Positions 33,347 to 55,982 of a stretch of DNA of 64,000 nucleotides are shown here, piece by piece. Source of the DNA: Bacillota bacterium (GTDB lineage: Bacteria > Planctomycetota > UBA8108 > UBA1146); assembly GCA_003973385.1 (NCBI GenBank), contig QNYK01000023.1, positions 2,951 through 66,950 on the forward strand, in the 5' to 3' direction. How positions within the stretch are numbered: the stretch's first letter is position 1; the number at the start of each line of letters is the position of its first letter. A program made the translations under genes and the position numbers. The notes below the pieces were generated by a model. That model made no database searches, was not told the DNA's origin, and saw only the letters and a program-made list of their open reading frames with translations.

Positions 33347-34608
33347 ATCAAAGCATTGACCTCCTGATCGAGAATGTTGGAAGGCTGCTTCCCGGTCATG
33401 CGAAACCCGTCGAGGGAGTTTCGGTAGCGGTCGACGCAGGAAAGATCAAAGCTCTGGGACCGGCGGGAGACCTCGCCGGTCTTTTTGATGGGCGACAGTC
33501 CTTTGATGGCAGCGGTTCACTCCTGACTCCCGGCTTCGTCGACTCACACACTCACCTCGTGTTCGGCGGCAATAGAGCTGGAGAGTTCGTACACCGTTGC
33601 CAGGGTAGAGACTACGAACAGATCGCAGCCGAAGGGGGTGGCATCAGAGCCTCCGTCAAGATGACGCGAGAGGCGAGCCTCGATCAACTGGTCGAAGATG
33701 CCAGGCCCAGACTGGCGCGAATGATCGCAGCTGGATCCACCACCATCGAGATCAAGAGCGGCTACGGTCTCGATGCTGCAACTGAACTGAAGATGCTGCG
33801 AGCCATCCGTCAACTCGCCGAAGAACACCCGATCGAGATCGTGGCCACTTTCATGGGAGCTCACGAGGTCCCCGATGAATGGCAACATGATCGAGCGGAA
33901 TATGTACGGATCATCTGCGAGGAGATGATCCCTCAGGTCGCGGAGGATGGGCTGGCCGAATTCTGCGATGTGTTCTGTGAAAGAGGGGTTTTTGACCCCG
34001 CTGAGAGCACCCGGATTCTCCAGGCAGGCCTCGAACACGGCCTCAAACCCAAGATACACGCCGACGAACTCGCTGCCTCTGGAGGCTCGCTTGTTGCGGG
34101 CGAGATCGGTGCAGTAAGCGCAGATCATCTGATGCAGATCACACCCGATGGGATCGATGCCCTCAGAAGTGCTTCGGTGGTCGCAACACTACTTCCCGGG
34201 ACCACTTTCTATCTACGTAAATCCGGTTACGCTCCGGCTCGGCCGCTGATCGATGCCGGGCTCGATCTGGCCATCGCAACGGACAGGAATCCTGGTTCCT
34301 GCACCATCGAAAGCATGCTGTTCATCGCGGGATTATCCGTGATGCATCTGGGTTTGACTCCTGGAGAAGCACTCCGTGCAGCAACGTATGGAGGGGCCAT
34401 GGCACTCGACCGTGAAAAGGTCTGCGGGTCCATCGAAGAAGGAAAAAGAGCAGATTTGATCCTGTGGAATGCTCCAGACGAGGATGTACTGATTCACGAG
34501 TTCGCCAACGAGGTGCCACGCACCGTCTTCGCCGCAGGCAGGGTCGTCTCCGATTCTCAAGGTGACAGAACTGAAAGATCCGGTGTCCATCCGGACCAGG
34601 GGGTTTGA
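33343..34608 (+). CDS. hutI: Imidazolonepropionase.
   Basis: [32 protein letters not shown] are amidohydrolase HutI motifs. Start overlaps the hutU stop. Confidence 0.9.
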
Positions 34609-36824
34609 ACAAGATGTCCAAGTTCATCGATCGACTTACCCAGGCTATGAAAGAACAAGCATGGGGTGAGTACGAAGAGGCGTGGCTCGACGCCATCGAA
34701 GGCGAGAATGTTCGCTTTTCGGAATACCTCAATGCGACCAGCAATGCGATCACCGCCGGGCACGGAGAAAGAGCAGGTCAGATGATGGAGTTGATTCTCC
34801 AATCAGGACTGACGGACGAACTGACTCCTGACAAGAAGTTAGAGTTTCATGAAGCGCTCGCTTGCAGCCTGCCGCGGAACAAGGATGCCCGCGAGACGCT
34901 GCTCGAACTGTACAGAAAACAGTTCGGGCACATCGAAGGATTTGACAATTGCGTCGAAACTTCAGGTTTGATGGATGGCACCAGACCGGCCGAAGTGATC
35001 CCGCTGTTCAAGCGTATGGTGCACTATCAGCCGGGATCGTATGTCAAACACCGCTCTGGCTGGGGCGTTGGCGTTGTGAAGGAACTGGACCCTGCCCTGG
35101 GAACCGCAACCGTTGATTTCGAGAAAAAGGATGGTCATTCCGTAAAGCTGGAAGCACTGCCGCAGATCTGTGACCCGCTCGAAGCGGATCACTACCTGGT
35201 ACTCGGCTGGCAACGCCCGGAGGAGTTACGGCGAATCGCCGAGGACGAACCGGGCGAATTGATCAAACTGGTACTGAGAACCAGTAGCCGGCCGATCCCG
35301 TTGGCGCGAATTCGGGAAGCGTTGGTCGGAGTCGCGGTTCCAGCCACATCCTGGAGCAAGTGGTGGTCCAGAGCCCGAACCGCGATCAAGAAGGATCCCC
35401 TGGTCGGTCTCTCGGGCGGAAAAAACAACGAGTTGTACCTGCTCGATGGACCCGAAGCACTCGCCACCAGCATCGAGCGGCGCTTCTCTGGTCTCAGCCC
35501 CAAGGACCGCCTCAAGACGATTCGAGAGTGCTTGAGCGAGATTCCGGATGATCAACATCCGCTCCTCGATGGCCAGTTCAAGATACTGCGCCGTGACATC
35601 GTCCGTGGAGACCTCGACCATGCGAATCGAGTCTCCGCACTCTTGCTCCTGCGCGATCACGCACCCGATGGCGAGGAAGAATCTGCCATCGGAGCACTGG
35701 TCTTGAGAGCGGGCCACTGCGCAGATCTGCTCAACTCTCTCGGCCGCGATGACGATTTGCGGGATACGCTGGCGCTGATCCGGGAATTGAACCCTGACGA
35801 CTGGGTGCAATTGCGAAGCGAACTGATCCTGCAAGCAGATGATTCTCTGCGCGAACTTGTACTCAACCTGCTTGACGATTCTGGCGAACTGGCGATTGCT
35901 GATCAGATCGCATCCAGCGTGTTACATAGACCACGCAGATCACCGCTGTTCTTCCTCTATCTGGCACGTTGCTCCGCCTCGGAAAATTCTACGAAGTTCC
36001 CATCACTGAAAGGTGCTTCGGCTCCCGATCTCTTCCGCCAGGCTGCGGCACTGTTTGATCGGCTCTCACTCGAAAATGAGGGATCAGCGAAGAACCCAGG
36101 GCTTGAAATCGCAGTGAAGCGATACAGGCAACACCTCTCGGTGAAGCCATTTGCGCTGCTGAGTAGGGTTCTCGATCGATGTGGCCTGACAGATGCTCGC
36201 GAGATCTACATGCAACTTGCAGGCTCGCGCAGCATCAGCGACTCGAACCTTGACAAGGCCAAGGCCATCATCTTGCGCAAATTCCCCAAGGTACTCGCAG
36301 GACAACCGAGCCGCGGAAGTGTTGCAGTCGCAGAAAGTGCCATCTACTCGACCGAGTTTGGGCTATCCAAAGTTCAAAGCGAACTCGAAGAGATCCGAAA
36401 TGTGAAACTTCCCGAGATATTCAAGGCGATCGGGGATGCCGCAGCACTGGGAGACCTGAGCGAAAATGCAGAGTTCACCTCTGCCATCGAGGAACGAGAA
36501 AACCTGAATCGCAAGGTGATGGAACTTCAGGGAGACCTGGATCGAGCCCGCGTCATCGACCCCGAGGAAGCGAGCATCGATCAGATTGGTCTCGGCAGCC
36601 AGATCCGTTTCCATAACCTCTCTACCGATTCAGTGGCTGAATACTGCCTGCTCGGGCCGTGGGACGGCGGGCCTGACGAGGGGGTACTCTCCTATCTCTC
36701 CCCGCTCGGGAAGGCGATGCTACAGAAAAAGGTCGGTGATCAGTTCGATGTCAAACTGCCGACCGGTGTCCATAGCATCAAGATACTGGAGATCAGTCAG
36801 GGCAAGGTTCCAGAGCAGATTTAG
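34605..36824 (+). CDS. 739-aa protein with a C-terminal GreA/GreB transcript-cleavage-factor module and a ~580-aa uncharacterised N-terminal region.
   Basis: The last ~160 aa align with GreA: coiled coil with GDLSENAEF (cf. GDLKENAEY), ARVID, and FKBP-like tail SPLGKAMLQKKVGDQFDVKLPTGVHSIKILEI. Start overlaps the hutI stop. Confidence 0.7.
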   Translation: MNKMSKFIDRLTQAMKEQAWGEYEEAWLDAIEGENVRFSEYLNATSNAITAGHGERAGQMMELILQSGLTDELTPDKKLEFHEALACSLPRNKDARETLLELYRKQFGHIEGFDNCVETSGLMDGTRPAEVIPLFKRMVHYQPGSYVKHRSGWGVGVVKELDPALGTATVDFEKKDGHSVKLEALPQICDPLEADHYLVLGWQRPEELRRIAEDEPGELIKLVLRTSSRPIPLARIREALVGVAVPATSWSKWWSRARTAIKKDPLVGLSGGKNNELYLLDGPEALATSIERRFSGLSPKDRLKTIRECLSEIPDDQHPLLDGQFKILRRDIVRGDLDHANRVSALLLLRDHAPDGEEESAIGALVLRAGHCADLLNSLGRDDDLRDTLALIRELNPDDWVQLRSELILQADDSLRELVLNLLDDSGELAIADQIASSVLHRPRRSPLFFLYLARCSASENSTKFPSLKGASAPDLFRQAAALFDRLSLENEGSAKNPGLEIAVKRYRQHLSVKPFALLSRVLDRCGLTDAREIYMQLAGSRSISDSNLDKAKAIILRKFPKVLAGQPSRGSVAVAESAIYSTEFGLSKVQSELEEIRNVKLPEIFKAIGDAAALGDLSENAEFTSAIEERENLNRKVMELQGDLDRARVIDPEEASIDQIGLGSQIRFHNLSTDSVAEYCLLGPWDGGPDEGVLSYLSPLGKAMLQKKVGDQFDVKLPTGVHSIKILEISQGKVPEQI

Positions 36825-38196
36825 GCGAATCAGTGGAACCGGTGGCTCCCATCAACTGCTCCAGGAGTATGGTAGCAAAGGCTCCTGCAGGCAGGCTGAA
36901 GTGGACCATCAAACACTGCTGATCATCTTCCCAGACAACTGATGGATCTCCGACCTGGATACGCAAGGGGCGACGCGTACCATCCAGTTTCATCCCCTTG
37001 ACATGGGAGAGCCAGGAGTCGGGCCGCAGTCCCTCGGAAATCAGCACTGCACTTTCAATCTTGCCCGCCTCCCCTTGAGGCAACTTCATCTTTCTCCCGA
37101 AAATGGGCCCGGTCGGACTGATCTGGCCCTCTCTCGCACGCTGTTGCTCTCGGCTCACATCTTCTGCATCGAGAGAGACATGGTATCTGGAGCGCTGTCC
37201 CTCCAGCTGGCAGACATCACCTCCCCACGGCATCCAGAAGCCATCGTTGCTTCTCTGGATCCGTTCCATCAGGACCCAGTTGAAGAGTTCCGCCTGATAT
37301 GCCGAGTAGTACATCTTTCGAAGTGCGTGTGGGATCCTGCGAGCTGCCGCACGGAGGTTGCCGGGGTGAGTCCGCAGCGATGTCAGGAGTGCTGCCTCGG
37401 TGGTCCTACCGGGTGGCAATAGTCTGCGAGCCTCATCGATTTCACCGGCACTGTAGGCTGTTCGATATTCCTCCTCAACTCCATCACGTGGCGCCAGTAG
37501 CAACTCGACAGCCTCGGCAATCTGCCTGCGCAGCAGTGCAGCTCCGATTCGAGCACCATCTCCATGCATTCCGAAGCGTTGCGGACCGTAGAAGTTTGGC
37601 AATCCGCTGACCGCGACCTGCTCGAGGTGTGTTTTCACATGCTCGATCGAGTTGGGCTGCACATCGCGGATCCGGATCTCGAAGCGATTTCCAGACAGGT
37701 GACCTGTTCGAATCTTGTTTCGATGCCGTGAAACCGACACTACCCGGATCCATGGTGCCTCGATCGCCTCGACACCTTTATCGCTCAGCAATTGAACCGA
37801 AAAGGTCTGGGTGGCGATGGCTCTCTTGTCCTTGAATCCTGCAAATCCGACCTGCTCACGCTTCACCGCCAGTGTTCGGGCGATGTGATCGCGCGCCTGG
37901 ATCGTCGTCCGATTGCTCTTCTCGACGGTGATATAGAGATGTTCTCCTGCCCCACAGGGGCTGTAGAGCGGTATCTCGGTGACCCTGAAATCCTCCCAGC
38001 GCTGACGGATGACTCCACCGATGGGAGGGATCTGTGGCAGGATCCTGGGCGGGTGGTATCCGGAGGCGCGATCGGTGCCGAGAACATCTGCGGGATCCAC
38101 CTCGATGATCTGTGCCACCGTCTCGGGATCTGCATCCTCGCCGGTAGCATCCAGAGGCGGGTCCATCGGGGCCTCGTCTGTCGGTTGCTGACTCAT
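36793..38196 (-). CDS. truD: tRNA pseudouridine(13) synthase TruD family.
   Basis: GFAGFKDKRAIATQ matches the TruD motif that includes the catalytic Asp, and RFGMHG is also characteristic of TruD. The ORF extends to 38364; the internal Met at 38196 is preferred. Confidence 0.75.
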   Translation of the reverse strand: MSQQPTDEAPMDPPLDATGEDADPETVAQIIEVDPADVLGTDRASGYHPPRILPQIPPIGGVIRQRWEDFRVTEIPLYSPCGAGEHLYITVEKSNRTTIQARDHIARTLAVKREQVGFAGFKDKRAIATQTFSVQLLSDKGVEAIEAPWIRVVSVSRHRNKIRTGHLSGNRFEIRIRDVQPNSIEHVKTHLEQVAVSGLPNFYGPQRFGMHGDGARIGAALLRRQIAEAVELLLAPRDGVEEEYRTAYSAGEIDEARRLLPPGRTTEAALLTSLRTHPGNLRAAARRIPHALRKMYYSAYQAELFNWVLMERIQRSNDGFWMPWGGDVCQLEGQRSRYHVSLDAEDVSREQQRAREGQISPTGPIFGRKMKLPQGEAGKIESAVLISEGLRPDSWLSHVKGMKLDGTRRPLRIQVGDPSVVWEDDQQCLMVHFSLPAGAFATILLEQLMGATGSTDSPKSALEPCPD

Positions 38197-38507
38197 CCGA
38201 AAGGTTCTCCTGACCCCGAAGGGACGCCCGGCCGCGGCTTCTCGAGCCCCATGCGACGTAATCGGGGATTTCACCCCAACGGAGGGCATCCCGGAGACGA
38301 TCGTACCAGTTTCCACATCGCAGGTGATAACGGTTCCGGGTAGAAGCTGCGACGATCTGCCCACGATGGGTCCCGCACGCCAGGTCTGGCCCTGCTGCTG
38401 ATATTTATGTGGTGTGAACCATCGTCTCCCCTCGACAGCCGGGTGACGCTAGGATATTGCACCCTTGCCGTCGGTGCGTGTTCGTCCCATCAGAGAGGAG
38501 CGAAGAG

Positions 38508-38867
38508 ATGACCACTGTTCCGAGCCGTCAACTCGAGACCTTCGAGAACCCACAGCCTCTGAGAGACTACACGATTCGATTCGACTGTCCCGAGTTCACC
38601 TGCCTGTGCCCGCTCACCGGTCAACCCGATTTTGCCCACTTCGAACTGGAATACGTCCCTGATACTCAATGCATCGAGAGCAAATCATTGAAACTCTACC
38701 TGTGGTCCTATCGAGACGAGGGTGCCTTCCACGAAGCGGTGACCAACCAGATCCTCGACGATCTGGTCGCTGCCTGCTCGCCACGCTGGATCAAGGTGAC
38801 CGGTCACTTCTTCGTCCGCGGCGGCATCACCCCGACCATCACCGTCGAACACGGCACCCGCTGCTGA
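38508..38867 (+). CDS. queF: NADPH-dependent 7-cyano-7-deazaguanine (preQ0) reductase, type I.
   Basis: [15 protein letters not shown] (catalytic Cys) and the QueF motif region [14 protein letters not shown]; 119 aa from the Met at 38508. Confidence 0.9.
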
Positions 38868-38893
38868 TCCGATGGCCACTGGCGACTTGACTC

Positions 38894-38907
38894 CGAACAT
38901 CTGTTCG
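38894..38907. promoter_or_regulatory. Candidate LexA operator (Cheo-box type, CGAAC-N4-GTTCG) upstream of the small ORF and lexA.
   Basis: Perfect palindrome CGAACATCTGTTCG, read directly. It lies 27 nt after the queF stop, 68 nt before the small-ORF ATG and ~240 nt before lexA. A near-identical site lies upstream of dinB. Confidence 0.7.
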
Positions 38908-38974
38908 CCACCATACGGCTACCACTCCATGACGGTGAATTCGTTTCGAATGGTGACTAAAGAAGGAGGAAATT

Positions 38975-39103
38975 ATGGAAGGGTTAGCCGCAGCAGCATT
39001 TGTTTTCAGTCTAGTCGGAGTTGTGGCACTTGTTCGACTGGAAAAACTTACAAAAACCTTGAAAGAGAACGGGATTCTCAAAGAGGACTACAAAGAAGAA
39101 TAA
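38975..39103 (+). CDS. Unannotated 42-aa single-helix membrane peptide in the lexA leader. Candidate SOS-induced toxin or division inhibitor (TisB/SidA-like).
   Basis: ATG at 38975 is preceded by AGAAGGAGGA (5-nt spacer) and a TAA stop at 39101. Product is MEGLAAAAFVFSLVGVVALVRLEKLTKTLKENGILKEDYKEE. The local sequence and codons are AT-rich, unlike the flanking DNA. It is too short for the ORF track. Confidence 0.5.
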   Translation: MEGLAAAAFVFSLVGVVALVRLEKLTKTLKENGILKEDYKEE

Positions 39104-39148
39104 TGCACCGAGCAATAACACTCAGAAACCTCGGAGGTACTCCTGATC

Positions 39149-39823
39149 ATGAAATCCTCAGTCCACCAGAATCCGGGTACCGAGCGGTCCCTGACAGGGA
39201 CTCGTGCTCGGGTTCTCGATGTCATCCAGGCTGGAGTGCAGCAAGGTCGTCGCGCCACGGTTCGGGAAATCGCGGCTCAACTGGGTCTTTCTTCCCCCGC
39301 TTCGGTACACAGACACCTGCGCCGTCTCGAACGAGACGGTTTCATCCGCCGAGATCCGCTCGGTGGTTCCCGCAGTTGGATGCCAACTGCACCGGGTTCG
39401 ATTCCGATCGTTGGCCTCATCGCCGCAGGACAACCGATCGAAAGTTGTACCGATGACGGAAGTCAGCCACTCGAATGGCTCGACATTGCCCCACAAACCT
39501 TTGCCAGTTCCGGTGACATTGTGGCACTCAAGATCAAGGGTAGAAGTATGCAGGATGCGGGAATCCTGTCAGGAGACCTGGCCATCGTCCGGCGACAACC
39601 GATGGTCGAGAATGGTGAAGTCGCTGCCGTCACCGTCGATGGAAAGGGCACGCTCAAGAGCTGGCGAATCGAAACCCCTGGCACAGGCCAGCGATCTCGT
39701 CGACGGGTTCGGCTCAAGGCAGCCCATCCCGAGTTCGAGGATATCGAAGTTGATCCCGAGCATCATTCGATCGAGGTGTTCGGAAAACTGGTCGGGATCA
39801 TTCGTCACTTTGATCGACCCTGA
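39149..39823 (+). CDS. lexA: LexA repressor (S24 peptidase).
   Basis: N-terminal winged HTH (TVREIAAQLGLSSPASVHRHLRRLERDGFI), Ala-Gly cleavage region (LIAAGQPI), and catalytic Ser in KGRSMQDAGI with downstream Lys (KGTLKSW). Confidence 0.92.
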   Translation: MKSSVHQNPGTERSLTGTRARVLDVIQAGVQQGRRATVREIAAQLGLSSPASVHRHLRRLERDGFIRRDPLGGSRSWMPTAPGSIPIVGLIAAGQPIESCTDDGSQPLEWLDIAPQTFASSGDIVALKIKGRSMQDAGILSGDLAIVRRQPMVENGEVAAVTVDGKGTLKSWRIETPGTGQRSRRRVRLKAAHPEFEDIEVDPEHHSIEVFGKLVGIIRHFDRP

Positions 39824-39835
39824 CCGGGAGAACTG

Positions 39836-40099
39836 ATGGCCGAAATCCGCGAAGAAGAGATCCATGAGGCCCTCGACGAGGTGGTCGCCTGCTTTCGTGG
39901 CGGAAAGGTCGAAATCCGTTCTCTGCGCTGGCGTGGTCGTCACCATGTCGTCACGCAGATGCACGCCAGCTGGATCGATCGTTCCGTGCATCCACCGGTA
40001 CATGGCTTCACCGTCACGCTGGAAAGCGACGATCTGATGGAACTGGCGTACCAGGCGGGTGATCTGGTCTGGCGACTGGAACGTCTCTTTCTGGAGTAA
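39836..40099 (+). CDS. Hypothetical 87-aa protein translationally coupled to lexA.
   Basis: GGGAGA RBS and an ATG 13 nt after the lexA stop. No recognisable domain. The last codons lie inside the first unit of the downstream tandem repeat. Confidence 0.5.
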   Translation: MAEIREEEIHEALDEVVACFRGGKVEIRSLRWRGRHHVVTQMHASWIDRSVHPPVHGFTVTLESDDLMELAYQAGDLVWRLERLFLE

Positions 40100-40229
40100 T
40101 CACAGTGTTTCTGGAGTCATCACAGTGTTGTTTCTGGAGTCATCACAGTGTTTCTGGAGTCACCACAGTGTTTCTGGAGTCACCACAGTGTTTCTGGAGT
40201 CACCACAGTGTTTCTGGAGTCATCACAGT
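40088..40229. repeat. Seven tandem copies of the 20-bp unit GTTTCTGGAGTCA(T/C)CACAGT (first copy degenerate), noncoding.
   Basis: Read directly from the sequence. Unit boundaries are 40107, 40130, 40150, 40170, 40190 and 40210, with a 3-bp insertion at 40127-40129. It sits between the convergent 87-aa ORF and the HEAT-vWA gene. Confidence 0.9.
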
Positions 40230-40264
40230 GCCAGGCTGACCGACGCTGTGTTCGGGTTGTGCGG

Positions 40265-42127
40265 TCAGGTCCCTGCATCCTGTTTGCCGAAGGAAGCTTC
40301 CACATCATGGAAGACGCCTCCGGCATCGGCTGCAACTCCCTCGAGAAATGCCCGGTTGGCGCCGCGGATCCGACCCACCGAGAGCACATGAATCCTCGCC
40401 TGCCCCCAGCGATTCCAGCGCCGGATATGCCACCGAAGTCGATCACCGCTCTGAATCTTGCCCTCGGTCGGGGCCCCCTCCGTCAGCAGCATGACGGTGT
40501 CGGTACCGGGCTCGAGAACGGCCCTTCGCAGCGGACCGTGGAGATTCCCCCTCGCGGCTCCACGACCTGTGGGCACCTGCTGGGCGCGAATCTGCTTTTC
40601 GAGTTCTTTGCGGGAGACTCCCAGCGGCTGCACTCGCGGCAGCGCCGGCAGGCTTCGACTGGCAAAGTGCACCACCTGGACCATCGCATCGCGGGGAAGT
40701 TGCCCCAGCACTCTCAGGAGTTCTGCTCGGGCAACGTCGATGCGCCTCGCTCCATCGACATCGAAATTGCCATCGACATCGCGAGACATCCCTCCCGAGA
40801 CATCGGAGAGAAACACGATCCGCTTCGAATCGAGCGGAACACCATGGTATCGAACCACACTCGTTCCTCGGGGGTCGTCATCTGCGCTCGCTTCGCCCGC
40901 TGTGTCCGGGTCGACTTCAGGAACAGGAGCAGCAGCAGTGGATTCCTCCAGCCAGGACTGCTTTCGGCTTTTCCACCATGAATCCCAGGAGCTGGCGGTG
41001 GAGGAGATCCCATCCTGCTCGGTGAGTGCCGCCAGCGTCGACCAGAGTTGCGCCTGCGTGGCTCCCTCCATCGTCGACGCACTCTCGATCAGGCCGCCGA
41101 TGAATTCTCCGCGTCGAGCTCGCGGCAACGAGGCCCCCGGGCCAGCGAGGACCTGAAGTGCAGCACGGCGAATTCTTCCACCCCAGATGCCCTGGCGATC
41201 CTTCCACGGCCGGGTCACCGCCTCGAACGCGGCTTCACCCCCTCGGTCGAGATCCGCCACTGCGAGTGCCTGGAGTGCTGCAATCCGCAACGCAGGAAGC
41301 TTTTTTTCCCGCAGCGCTCGCTCGAGAATCGGCAGCGCCCCGGCAGCGTCATGGATCGCCAGTGCCCGCATCGCCTCGCCTCGCACATACCAGGGCAAGC
41401 CTCGCTTCGCCTGATTCAGCAGCACCTGCAACGACCTCTTGTCGTGACTCCCCTGCGGCAGTGCAGCGAGAGCTCCCAGCGCCATCTCTCGAGCATCTGC
41501 CGAGGGTGACCCGAGCGCCACCGCCAGCAGTTCGAGCAGTAACGATGGGTCGGGACAGCGCAGGTAGATCTCGGCGAGGATCTCCTCGATCCCTTCGGGT
41601 GCTGGATCACGCGCTCCCCTGCGCGGAAAACCGACCCTCAATTTGCTTCGATCCTCGTCGCTCCACTTCTGGATGATGTGTTCGAATACCTCGTCGCGAA
41701 CCGTTCCCGAGGAATCCCCCAGTAGTTCGATCACCTGCTGGATGTCGCCTGGACCCTGCCGCACACGATCGCGGGCCTGGCGCGCCGCCTGAGTCTGTTT
41801 CTCGACGGAACGCTGCTCATCGACGCGCTCCTGCGGAGGTTTCGGTAGCTGGGCCTGGAGCGAAGCCGAGGGGATCGACCACAGAACGATCAGCAGCAGC
41901 GAACTCACGAATCGACACGATGTCGTCGATGTCTCCTGCAGCAGCGGCTGGGGCCTGCCGCCTCCGTGCCGGTCACCGGGGCCAGCGGGATCGGGCCTGT
42001 GCGGGAAAGGGAGCAACGGCCGATCGTTGCAGAGCCCTGGAATCGTCGACTGCTGCCGACACTTCGATGCGAGAATCGGCGCTGGATCGCCCGGGTCATG
42101 CAGTTTCTGGGTCATCGTGGATACCAT
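40265..42127 (-). CDS. Secreted or membrane-anchored HEAT-repeat protein with a C-terminal von Willebrand factor A (vWA) domain.
   Basis: Hydrophobic segment SSLLLIVLWSIPSASLQA. HEAT/PBS-lyase-like repeats (ALGALAALP, AMRALAIHD, RIAALQALAV). vWA MIDAS motif RIVFLSDVSGGMS and VMLLTEGAPTEG. N-terminal Pro-rich 70 aa; start uncertain. Confidence 0.65.
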   Translation of the reverse strand: MVSTMTQKLHDPGDPAPILASKCRQQSTIPGLCNDRPLLPFPHRPDPAGPGDRHGGGRPQPLLQETSTTSCRFVSSLLLIVLWSIPSASLQAQLPKPPQERVDEQRSVEKQTQAARQARDRVRQGPGDIQQVIELLGDSSGTVRDEVFEHIIQKWSDEDRSKLRVGFPRRGARDPAPEGIEEILAEIYLRCPDPSLLLELLAVALGSPSADAREMALGALAALPQGSHDKRSLQVLLNQAKRGLPWYVRGEAMRALAIHDAAGALPILERALREKKLPALRIAALQALAVADLDRGGEAAFEAVTRPWKDRQGIWGGRIRRAALQVLAGPGASLPRARRGEFIGGLIESASTMEGATQAQLWSTLAALTEQDGISSTASSWDSWWKSRKQSWLEESTAAAPVPEVDPDTAGEASADDDPRGTSVVRYHGVPLDSKRIVFLSDVSGGMSRDVDGNFDVDGARRIDVARAELLRVLGQLPRDAMVQVVHFASRSLPALPRVQPLGVSRKELEKQIRAQQVPTGRGAARGNLHGPLRRAVLEPGTDTVMLLTEGAPTEGKIQSGDRLRWHIRRWNRWGQARIHVLSVGRIRGANRAFLEGVAADAGGVFHDVEASFGKQDAGT

Positions 42128-54668: not shown

Positions 54669-54682
54669 CGAACATATGTTCG
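54669..54682. promoter_or_regulatory. Candidate LexA operator (Cheo box) in the dinB promoter.
   Basis: Perfect palindrome CGAACATATGTTCG, 41 nt upstream of the dinB ATG and 27 nt before the AAAGGAG RBS. Confidence 0.75.
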
Positions 54683-54722: not shown

Positions 54723-55982
54723 ATGCGCCCGCTGGTCCTGCATCTGGACATCGATGCCTTCTTCGCCTCGGTCGAGCAACTGCGCAACCCTCGGCTGGCG
54801 GGGCGTCCGGTGGCGGTCGGCAGCGGGGTCATCGCATCGTGTTCCTACGAGGCGAGGGAACATGGCCTGCAGGCGGGTATGCCGCTGGGCAAGGCGCTGC
54901 GCCAGTGCCCACCGCTGGTGATCGTGCGCGGACACGAATCGATCTACCGCTGCTACGCCGCCCGTCTGTTCGAGATCTGCCACAACTGGTCTCCGGTGGT
55001 GGAAGAACATCTCGACGAGGCGTATTGCGACCTGGCCGGAACCGAACGGATCTACCCCGATCCACGACAAGAGGTGGCACGACTGCGCGATGAGATCCAT
55101 TCGAGCACCGGATTGACCGTCACGGCGGGACTCGGCCGCAATCGGATGTTCGCCCGACTCATCGGCAAACTGCACAAACCCGATGGACTCGGATACATCG
55201 AACCGGAGCAGGAGGAATCGTTGCTGTTGCAACTACCGATCGAGAGCATCCCCGGAGTCGGCCCCCGCACCGCTACGGTGCTGTCGAACCTCGGCATCGA
55301 GAAGGTGGAACAACTGCGCGAACTGTCGCGCTCGGCGCTATCTGGACTGCTGGGACGAAACGGCGAGATCCTCTACGAACGCTGCCGAGGCGAGGATCAC
55401 CGTCTCATCGGCGGCCGTGAGATCCCCCGTAGCATCCAGCGGGGAACCTCCTTTGACGAGGACATCTCCTGTCCGCGCACTCTCGACGCGATGATCGAGT
55501 ACCTCGCTGAACGCATCGCCAGCAACCTGCGCCAGAGAGGTCTGGAAGCGGGAGGATTGGCACTTCAACTGGTTCACGGCGATCACCGACGCGATCGTCG
55601 ACGCGTCGCGCTGGCCCCACCCACCGCACTCGATCCTCCCATCATCAAGACCGCTCTCGAACTGCGTCGCGCGATGGAGGGACGCCGAACTGCGATCCGC
55701 TTCGTCGGCATCCACCTCGATCGCATCCGGCTCGCTGCCACGGTCGAGCAGGGAGATCTGTTCACGGCCACAACCGAAGACCCTGCTGACACCGATCTGC
55801 AGCAGCAGCAACGCTGGAAGCGACTTCTCGGCCAGGTTGACCGCATCCGGATGCGCCATGGCCACGGCGCACTGCTGCGCGGTAGCGCCCTGGCACTGCA
55901 AGATGGTCGGGATCGGGGTGGAACGGCTCTGGAGCGCGATCGACACGGACTCATCCTCCGCACCTCGTGCCTGACCCGTTGA
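54723..55982 (+). CDS. dinB: Y-family DNA polymerase IV-like (DinB).
   Basis: LHLDIDAFFASVEQ (catalytic Asp), SCSYEAREHG, DEAYCDL. Start assigned to the Met at 54723, just after the RBS and Cheo box. Confidence 0.85.
   Translation: MRPLVLHLDIDAFFASVEQLRNPRLAGRPVAVGSGVIASCSYEAREHGLQAGMPLGKALRQCPPLVIVRGHESIYRCYAARLFEICHNWSPVVEEHLDEAYCDLAGTERIYPDPRQEVARLRDEIHSSTGLTVTAGLGRNRMFARLIGKLHKPDGLGYIEPEQEESLLLQLPIESIPGVGPRTATVLSNLGIEKVEQLRELSRSALSGLLGRNGEILYERCRGEDHRLIGGREIPRSIQRGTSFDEDISCPRTLDAMIEYLAERIASNLRQRGLEAGGLALQLVHGDHRRDRRRVALAPPTALDPPIIKTALELRRAMEGRRTAIRFVGIHLDRIRLAATVEQGDLFTATTEDPADTDLQQQQRWKRLLGQVDRIRMRHGHGALLRGSALALQDGRDRGGTALERDRHGLILRTSCLTR

Follow-up and report, generated by a model that had tools for sequence, protein, structure and literature searches.

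The LexA repressors of Firmicutes and Actinobacteria recognize the motif GAAC-N4-GTTC (PMC4951493). In the lexA operons of Firmicutes, Actinobacteria and Chloroflexi that carry this motif (the Cheo-box or DinR-box), the palindrome overlaps the lexA promoter, and the same motif stands before a translesion polymerase gene. The Verrucomicrobia have a different LexA motif, with the inverted arrangement TGTTC-N4-GAACA, and an SOS response in the superphylum PVC (Planctomycetes, Verrucomicrobia and Chlamydiae) was not documented at the time of the study cited above (PMC4951493). Here we describe a lexA locus in a stretch of 64,000 nucleotides (nt) from a metagenome-assembled genome (MAG) of a Planctomycetota lineage (GenBank assembly GCA_003973385.1, contig QNYK01000023.1, positions 2,951 to 66,950); the whole stretch is called the window, and coordinates are counted from its first base. 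In order, the locus holds queF, a perfect palindrome of the GAAC-N4-GTTC class, a gene for a 42-amino-acid (aa) membrane peptide, lexA, and an open reading frame (ORF) of 87 aa. As in the Cheo-box operons, the palindrome overlaps the lexA promoter and recurs in front of a translesion polymerase gene, and LexA is canonical, with a winged helix-turn-helix and an S24 peptidase domain. It differs from them in its host and in having a foreign peptide gene between the operator and lexA. We conclude that the core of the locus, consisting of the operator, lexA and a gene of the DUF6504 family, is a lineage-typical SOS operon of known kind, and that the peptide gene is an acquired passenger, probably captured by SOS control.

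Parts of the locus resemble other described systems. The lexA-imuA-imuB-dnaE2 operon of Opitutus is a lexA-linked translesion cassette (PMC4951493). As in that operon and in umuDC cassettes, a small accessory gene follows lexA in the window, and relatives of that gene are found elsewhere in the order lexA, umuD-like S24 gene, DUF6504 gene, Y-family polymerase gene. The accessory protein here, however, is a DUF6504 protein (about 85 aa, predicted all-beta) and not ImuA or UmuD, the polymerase gene of the window lies 15 kb away with its own operator, and no dnaE2 gene was seen at the lexA/DUF6504 loci. The tisB/istR-1 and dinQ/agrB loci of Escherichia coli likewise have a gene for a short hydrophobic single-helix peptide behind a LexA operator, but we found neither a sequence relationship to them nor an antisense RNA; the peptide family described here mostly follows glmS without SOS boxes, and the LexA linkage of the 42-aa gene is an accident of insertion in one lineage. 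The DNA unit that carries the peptide gene also resembles elements at the 3' end of glmS, such as Tn7 at attTn7, and miniature inverted-repeat elements, in that it typically begins immediately past the glmS stop codon, is flanked by direct repeats of the glmS tail, has arms in inverted orientation, and is nearly identical across phyla in which its flanks are unrelated. In contrast to them, it is only about 195 bp long, is not noncoding but codes for a conserved 42-aa protein, lacks Tn7 ends as well as any transposase or integrase, and carries a direct repeat that is not a host target duplication; neither the unit nor its peptide was found in phage and plasmid collections (tblastn) or in a scan of IMG/VR. 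The resemblance to the targeting of glmS by Tn7 is used here only as a lead.

A probable LexA operator upstream of lexA

The palindrome CGAACATCTGTTCG was located on the forward strand at positions 38894–38907, beginning 27 nt past the queF stop codon. It lies directly 3' of the hexamer TTGACT (38887–38892), which resembles a −35 element and may serve as such for the lexA promoter, and is thus placed in the spacer between the −35 and −10 elements. Downstream on the same strand are a Shine-Dalgarno (SD) sequence, AAGGAGG (38963–38969), the 42-aa ORF MEGLAAAAFVFSLVGVVALVRLEKLTKTLKENGILKEDYKEE (38975–39103), the lexA SD sequence GGAGG (39133–39137), lexA itself (39149–39823, 224 aa) and the 87-aa ORF (39836–40099), whose ATG starts 13 nt past the final nucleotide of the stop codon of lexA. 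A first-pass annotation, made from the letters of the window, had described a perfect palindrome just after queF, a low-GC 42-codon ORF with a near-consensus SD sequence, and lexA followed 13 nt later by an 87-aa ORF, and our coordinates agree with it on each of these features.

The assignment of lexA was confirmed with Pfam (PF01726, E=1.3e-13; PF00717, E=1.8e-18) and with the NCBIfam equivalog TIGR00498, for which the score was 122.8 bits against a cut-off of 110.95. The protein consists of an N-terminal LexA-type winged helix (LexA_DNA_bind) and a C-terminal Peptidase_S24 domain. Inspection of the translation located the cleavage site Ala93-Gly94 in VGLIAAGQP, Ser133 in GRSM, and the lysine of GTLKSW at the position expected for the LexA catalytic dyad.

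Perfect copies of CGAAC-N4-GTTCG were counted over the window. There were two, compared with 0.06 expected, and at least two copies appeared in none of 100 shuffles. Both are intergenic and each precedes an SOS gene. The second copy, CGAACATATGTTCG (54669–54682, forward strand), is followed by TATCCT and lies 41 nt from the start of a gene for a dinB-type Y-family DNA polymerase (54723–55982, forward strand; Pfam IMS, E=4.1e-37; IMS_C, E=4.3e-15). Y-family polymerases are classic SOS genes, and dinB is, on this evidence, the second predicted SOS-regulated gene of the window. It was also the only further gene at which enrichment of the operator could be checked, recA, uvrA and the other SOS genes being outside the window. 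Four additional sites with one mismatch were all inside ORFs and were dismissed as operators.

Exactly one GAAC-N4-GTTC was present in the queF-lexA gap of each of 19 related loci. L007, L008 and L014 (related loci are designated by our own numbers) have TTGAC equally far from the box, and L011 has TTGCA in its place. No second operator with one mismatch or fewer was present before or inside lexA. Because the box at 38894–38907 follows TTGACT, is conserved at all orthologous loci and is repeated before dinB, it is very probably a real LexA operator; the enrichment of the motif, its conservation and the dinB copy make this part of the first-pass annotation, which had proposed a LexA operator upstream of lexA, very probable.

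Insertion of the peptide gene into the lexA leader

The peptide gene is contained in a low-GC insert of about 195–205 bp (38921–39125, forward strand) that begins approximately 14 nt past the operator, near the expected start of transcription, leaving the promoter and operator intact. The GC content of the insert is 42%, compared with 59% for the locus; values for queF and lexA range from 58 to 65% and those for the peptide region from 40 to 44%. In the sister lineages L007–L015, the same truD-queF-lexA-87aa-HEAT/VWA synteny is present with a queF-lexA gap of about 70–80 nt and without the peptide gene, and the 87-aa proteins of these lineages are 63–80% identical. The distance from operator to lexA is 242 nt in the window and about 50–70 nt in the sister lineages. 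At the queF-lexA position the peptide gene was found only in the window's own sub-lineage, which includes Planctomycetes bacterium UBA1146 and NAT2, and it is intact in every member. The co-occurrence of peptide, lexA and 87-aa ORF in related genomes, which the first-pass annotation had proposed to examine, was thus found for lexA and the 87-aa ORF, present together in all related loci, and not for the peptide, which is limited to that sub-lineage.

The insert contains, in order, ACCACTCC, ATGACGGTGAA, a leader arm, the SD sequence, the 42-aa ORF, a trailer arm and ACACTCAG. Its left end, ACCACTCC-ATGACGGTGAA, corresponds to the end of a trailer plus a degenerate glmS tail, and this vestige and the leader align with units that lie behind genuine glmS genes. 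Its right end, ACACTCAG, is followed by the native lexA SD motif TCGGAGG, which is shared with the peptide-less locus L014. DNA homology to units of other phyla spans approximately 38923–39129, and the insert amounts to about one period of the unit, bounded by an imperfect 8-bp direct repeat. Because sister lineages have the same site without the peptide, and because the insert has a foreign composition and its gene is linked to glmS elsewhere, these comparisons identify the peptide gene as a lineage-specific insertion rather than an ancestral component of the SOS operon.

Terminator prediction from the box to the end of lexA gave nothing but a weak intragenic match. With no terminator and no second operator between the box and lexA, a single LexA-repressed transcript is the simplest reading, and co-transcription of the peptide gene, lexA and the DUF6504 gene under LexA repression is likely.

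The 42-aa protein family and its mobile unit

More than 310 clusters homologous to the peptide were found, nearly all of them exactly 42 aa long and 74–98% identical. The carriers comprise 122 species genomes and include SAR86, Porticoccaceae, Halieaceae and SAR92, SAR202 and other Chloroflexota, Gemmatimonadota, Alphaproteobacteria, Myxococcales, Acidobacteriota and Flavobacteriales. The ratio of nonsynonymous to synonymous substitution rates (dN/dS) for the family is approximately 0.10, with dS saturated. A purine-rich SD sequence is found at the same place in most members, and the AlphaFold2 model of the window protein has a single helix at residues 2–31 (predicted local distance difference test score, pLDDT, 89) followed by an acidic tail. 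We conclude from this pattern of conservation that the 42-aa ORF is a real, strongly constrained gene. Searches of Pfam and NCBIfam gave no family and only noise even at E<=10, and full-text literature searches for the peptide sequence or for small proteins downstream of glmS returned nothing relevant. A search of Rfam with both strands of 38700–40400 at E<=10 gave only noise and no known riboswitch, leader or small RNA; the best antisense match was RybB (E=2.4, far below the gathering threshold), and a match to a long noncoding RNA fell on a tandem repeat, although a small RNA of an undescribed kind could be present. Outside the planctomycete lineage, a scan for the GAAC-N4-GTTC motif, and for that motif only, found none near the peptide gene; other phyla have SOS motifs of their own. 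The possibility that the ORF is a leader or attenuator peptide of lexA was rejected, since over 100 genomes have the same gene beside other neighbors.

In 31 of 80 genome loci the peptide gene starts 30 nt after the stop codon of glmS, whose product ends in PRNLAKSVTVE. Loci without an upstream glmS, including the window, still hold the last glmS codons at −42 (ACnGTnGARTAR), followed by the conserved leader. On the other side of the gene, a trailer contains an arm complementary to the leader, then ACACTC, and then, exactly 25 nt past the stop codon, a second copy resembling the glmS tail (GTnACnGTnGARTAR) in frame with the peptide gene. Over 82 loci, glmS tails were on the left in 36, on the right in 24 and on both sides in 22. 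The unit has a period of 195 nt (L026–L105; for example L045, L063, L081 and L082) and occurs occasionally in tandem arrays, with three copies in L082.

The leader and trailer arms covary: 78.6% of the alignment cells were paired, compared with 31–42% in slid controls, changes on both sides were present in 10 of 19 pairs, and the observed score was reached by none of 500 shuffles. The family as a whole has these terminal inverted repeats, and in the window copy the arms are degenerate. Folding of single sequences did not recover a long-range stem between the 5' and 3' arms in the window (z=+0.48) or in L081. The covariation supports pairing of the arms, and a role for them at the RNA level is unproven.

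Comparison of the unit, noncoding parts included, gave 94.5% identity between a MAG of the Chloroflexota and one of the Myxococcales, and 89–90% between other pairs of phyla. Because these nearly identical units reside in phyla whose flanking glmS 3' ends and GC contents differ, the comparison indicates that the unit moves horizontally between phyla. The glmS-tail repeat was considered as a duplication of the host target site, and this was rejected in a permutation test of right against left copies: right copies had 5.18 mismatches to their own left copy and 4.80 to those of other loci (p=0.96). The unit has no room for a transposase or integrase gene, and no search was made for an enzyme acting in trans. 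Together with the leader, the trailer and the repeats of the glmS tail, the 42-aa gene constitutes an undescribed unit with an odd repeat structure.

Exchange of the allele between planctomycete lineages

Sliding comparison of the window with the UBA1146-like loci (lineage B) gave 95–100% identity over approximately 38640–39835 and 81–87% on both sides of this tract, which takes in the 3' half of queF; within queF, identity climbs from 82–86% to 95–100% at about 38640. By gene, identity to the UBA1146-like loci was 93% for queF, 91–94% for the peptide unit and 95–96% for lexA, and it was 70% for truD and 66–73% for the HEAT/VWA gene. For comparison, lexA and truD of the peptide-less lineage C were 67 and 74% identical to those of the window. 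Because the tract is 95–100% identical while the flanking genes are only about 70% identical, the allele has moved as a block, and the alignments identify it as an operator-peptide-lexA allele exchanged by recombination between diverged planctomycete lineages. Such spread fits an advantage of the arrangement, without proving it.

The 87-aa protein belongs to DUF6504

The 87-aa ORF follows lexA in all related loci, and the order truD-(hexapeptide gene)-queF-lexA-87aa-HEAT/VWA is kept at every recovered locus. Close homologues of the protein (n=9) were all from Planctomycetota MAGs or metagenomes. By itself the window protein had no match in Pfam, including DUF6504 (PF20114), at E<=0.01. An exhaustive search with a profile of the window clade found 178 representatives at E<=1e-3, almost all of 80–90 aa. 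When 60 of these were aligned with the window ORF, PF20114 was matched by 44 of the 61 members, with a best E value of 8.7e-9, and the alignment had the pattern F..G...P..F.W..R.Y.V...W...FSV...D..EL...W.L.RV. The AlphaFold2 model of the 87-aa protein is all-beta (pLDDT 80.7), and structure comparison of this model gave no convincing neighbors. A full-text literature search for "DUF6504" returned nothing relevant. One 130-aa protein (P0132) joins an ArsR-type helix-turn-helix N terminus to what is, in a close relative of the 87-aa protein, the C-terminal half; it could be either a real fusion or a frameshift artefact.

The neighbors of the DUF6504 relatives are informative about their role. 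In one group of Planctomycetota-type loci (L106–L110), the DUF6504 gene shares 4 nt with the beginning of the gene for a 394-aa IMS polymerase. In an independent subfamily, the loci of which were obtained from a metagenome scan using a subfamily alignment, the order is lexA, an S24/UmuD-like gene, the DUF6504 gene, sometimes an ORF of some 118 aa, and finally a gene for an IMS polymerase. In this subfamily lexA was upstream in nine loci, and the IMS gene was downstream in all four loci of sufficient length. Because DUF6504 genes stand behind lexA or umuD-like genes and ahead of a Y-family polymerase gene, or are translationally coupled to the polymerase gene itself, DUF6504 most likely assists or regulates translesion synthesis in the SOS response. 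The profile match and these gene orders identify the 87-aa ORF as a divergent DUF6504 member and a recurrent SOS/translesion partner; the synteny likewise marks lexA and the 87-aa gene as ancestral partners, a tightly spaced conserved pair.

Some further features of these loci were recorded. L113, L115, L116, L118 and L127 have a second S24-peptidase gene, shorter and UmuD-like (148–169 aa), which comes after lexA and before the DUF6504 gene; in several loci the 3' end of the DUF6504 gene is overlapped by an unannotated ORF of about 118–121 aa that precedes the polymerase gene. In L106 (3810–3840) and L109 (3300–3330), a palindrome, ACCACACAnnTGTGTGGT, lies between TTGACT and TATACT, 150–700 nt 5' of the DUF6504-dinB pair, and is a candidate for a different SOS-type operator of these lineages.

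Neighboring genes and repeats

The upstream neighbor, queF (preQ0 reductase; 38508–38867, forward strand), was identified by Pfam QueF (E=1.3e-33). All of the related loci have a hexapeptide-repeat (LbH) gene of 223–245 aa between truD and queF; in the window, the interval of about 380 nt upstream of queF (38130–38507) is without it. Farther upstream, a 739-aa protein encoded at 34605–36824 has GreA/GreB N- and C-terminal domains at its C terminus only, past an extension of about 580 aa, and its relatives carry the annotation PF27167 HTH_GRAD. Downstream, seven copies of a 20-bp tandem repeat, TTTCTGGAGTCATCACAGTG, extend from 40088 to 40230, beginning in the last codons of the 87-aa ORF and filling the convergent intergenic gap. 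This repeat was not present in any relative; L007 and L008 have another short repeat at that place. It is loosely similar to the glmS-tail-plus-leader motif (TGGAGTAAT..ACAGTG), possibly by chance.

A model for the locus and its alternatives

We consider it probable that the locus is an autoregulated lexA operon that recently received the peptide unit and whose altered allele then spread. The model builds on the observed anatomy, homologies, insertion, horizontal spread and synteny. In the ancestral operon, a sigma-70-type promoter with a GAAC-N4-GTTC operator in its spacer would have driven lexA and the DUF6504 gene, with dinB 15 kb away behind its own identical operator. A unit of about 195–205 bp would then have inserted some 14 nt past the operator in the ancestor of one sub-lineage, placing the peptide gene in the 5' part of the lexA mRNA. 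The prediction is that LexA represses the gene there and that DNA damage induces it along with lexA and the DUF6504 gene. The operator-peptide-lexA allele would later have moved among planctomycete lineages by homologous recombination. Of the first-pass view that this is not a standard lexA locus, what stands is the foreign peptide gene; the 87-aa gene turned out to be a recurrent DUF6504 partner. The further proposal of a self-contained, four-part damage-response cassette did not hold up, the peptide gene being absent from sister lineages and elsewhere following glmS with no link to SOS; the exchange of operator, peptide gene and lexA as one block rescues the cassette idea in part. A bolder version of the model, in which a mobile mini-cassette of about 195 bp that resides at the glmS stop codon landed at lexA and spread as a favored allele, and in which DUF6504 is an unrecognized accessory factor or regulator of Y-family polymerases, is possible, although we hold it only tentatively.

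The question of which genes the operator controls can be answered differently. The insertion might have uncoupled lexA from its operator, so that lexA is now transcribed mainly from a promoter within the insert and the operator serves mainly or only the peptide gene. A candidate for such a promoter, TTCTCA-18-AATAAT (39075–39104, forward strand), ends at the peptide stop codon; acquired AT-rich DNA often contains fortuitous promoters, and the start of lexA is now much farther from the operator than the sister lineages have it. But the candidate is a weak match to the consensus (9 of 12), and a scan of 2 kb found two such sites where 0.7 was expected. Since no terminator separates the peptide gene from lexA, read-through from the upstream promoter would persist. 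A lexA gene that loses its autoregulation is usually at a disadvantage, and the allele has been successful in several lineages. We judge uncoupling unlikely. A different proposal concerns the peptide itself, which might be a true effector of the SOS response, acting under LexA control as a membrane toxin or persistence factor like TisB or DinQ, with the whole arrangement a selected damage-response cassette. Its position between operator and lexA behind a strong SD sequence, its single hydrophobic helix with a charged tail, its integrity within the lineage with few nonsynonymous changes, and the spread of the allele between diverged lineages, which would suit a selective advantage, are all compatible with that role. 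The rest of the family does not conform to it: at the 31 of 80 loci immediately behind glmS there is no space for a promoter or operator, other copies are in unrelated contexts, and the sister lineages do without the peptide. Membership in a known toxin family, a cognate antisense RNA and a family-wide association with SOS boxes would be expected of a type I toxin of the TisB/DinQ kind, and we found no match to a type I toxin family, no antisense RNA in Rfam, and no such association; broad conservation across phyla together with a strong SD sequence is also unlike the known type I toxins. A role of this kind seems quite unlikely.

The 87-aa protein, too, might have a different function, that of an SOS cell-division inhibitor comparable to SulA, YneA, DivS or ChiZ. 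Several phyla have an SOS division inhibitor beside lexA, as with yneA in Bacillus, sulA after lexA in Pseudomonas and Rv2719c in Mycobacterium, and the position of the 87-aa gene right after lexA is conserved across the clade. Against this, its relatives are coupled to a Y-family polymerase gene by the 4-nt overlap or lie between umuD-like and IMS genes, and the protein is predicted to be soluble and all-beta, lacks a transmembrane segment, and matched neither LysM nor SulA. We regard a division inhibitor as very unlikely and a translesion factor as the preferred assignment.

Several points weigh against the autoregulated operon with a captured peptide gene. LexA binding, damage induction and co-transcription are inferences from position, and the functions of the DUF6504 protein and the peptide are likewise inferred. 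The −10 element after the insertion is ambiguous (ACCATA or CACCAT), compared with CATCCT or TAATCT in the sister lineages, and transcription of lexA from the promoter-like sequence within the insert could escape control by the operator. SOS genes are not neighbors of two DUF6504 relatives (L108 and L111). For the unit, the target-site-duplication test was negative, and the taxonomy of its loci was taken from MAG bins, in which contamination is possible.

Implications

For the marine Planctomycetota, a poorly studied phylum, these results provide a testable SOS operator, CGAAC-N4-GTTCG, and a minimal predicted regulon consisting of lexA, the DUF6504 gene and dinB. The most interesting by-products are the association of DUF6504 with lexA and polymerase genes, and the undescribed, horizontally mobile unit of the 42-aa gene. 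DUF6504, repeatedly placed with lexA or umuD-like genes on one side and Y-family polymerase genes on the other, becomes a candidate new player in translesion synthesis, and the unit brings to light an unannotated family of small membrane proteins that is highly conserved and travels across phyla on a tiny piece of DNA. If the bolder version of the model is true, the landing of a mini-cassette at the start of the lexA mRNA would have put a conserved membrane peptide under SOS control. On the preferred model, too, the locus is a natural case of regulatory capture, in which a foreign gene was probably wired into a stress regulon simply by insertion into a leader.

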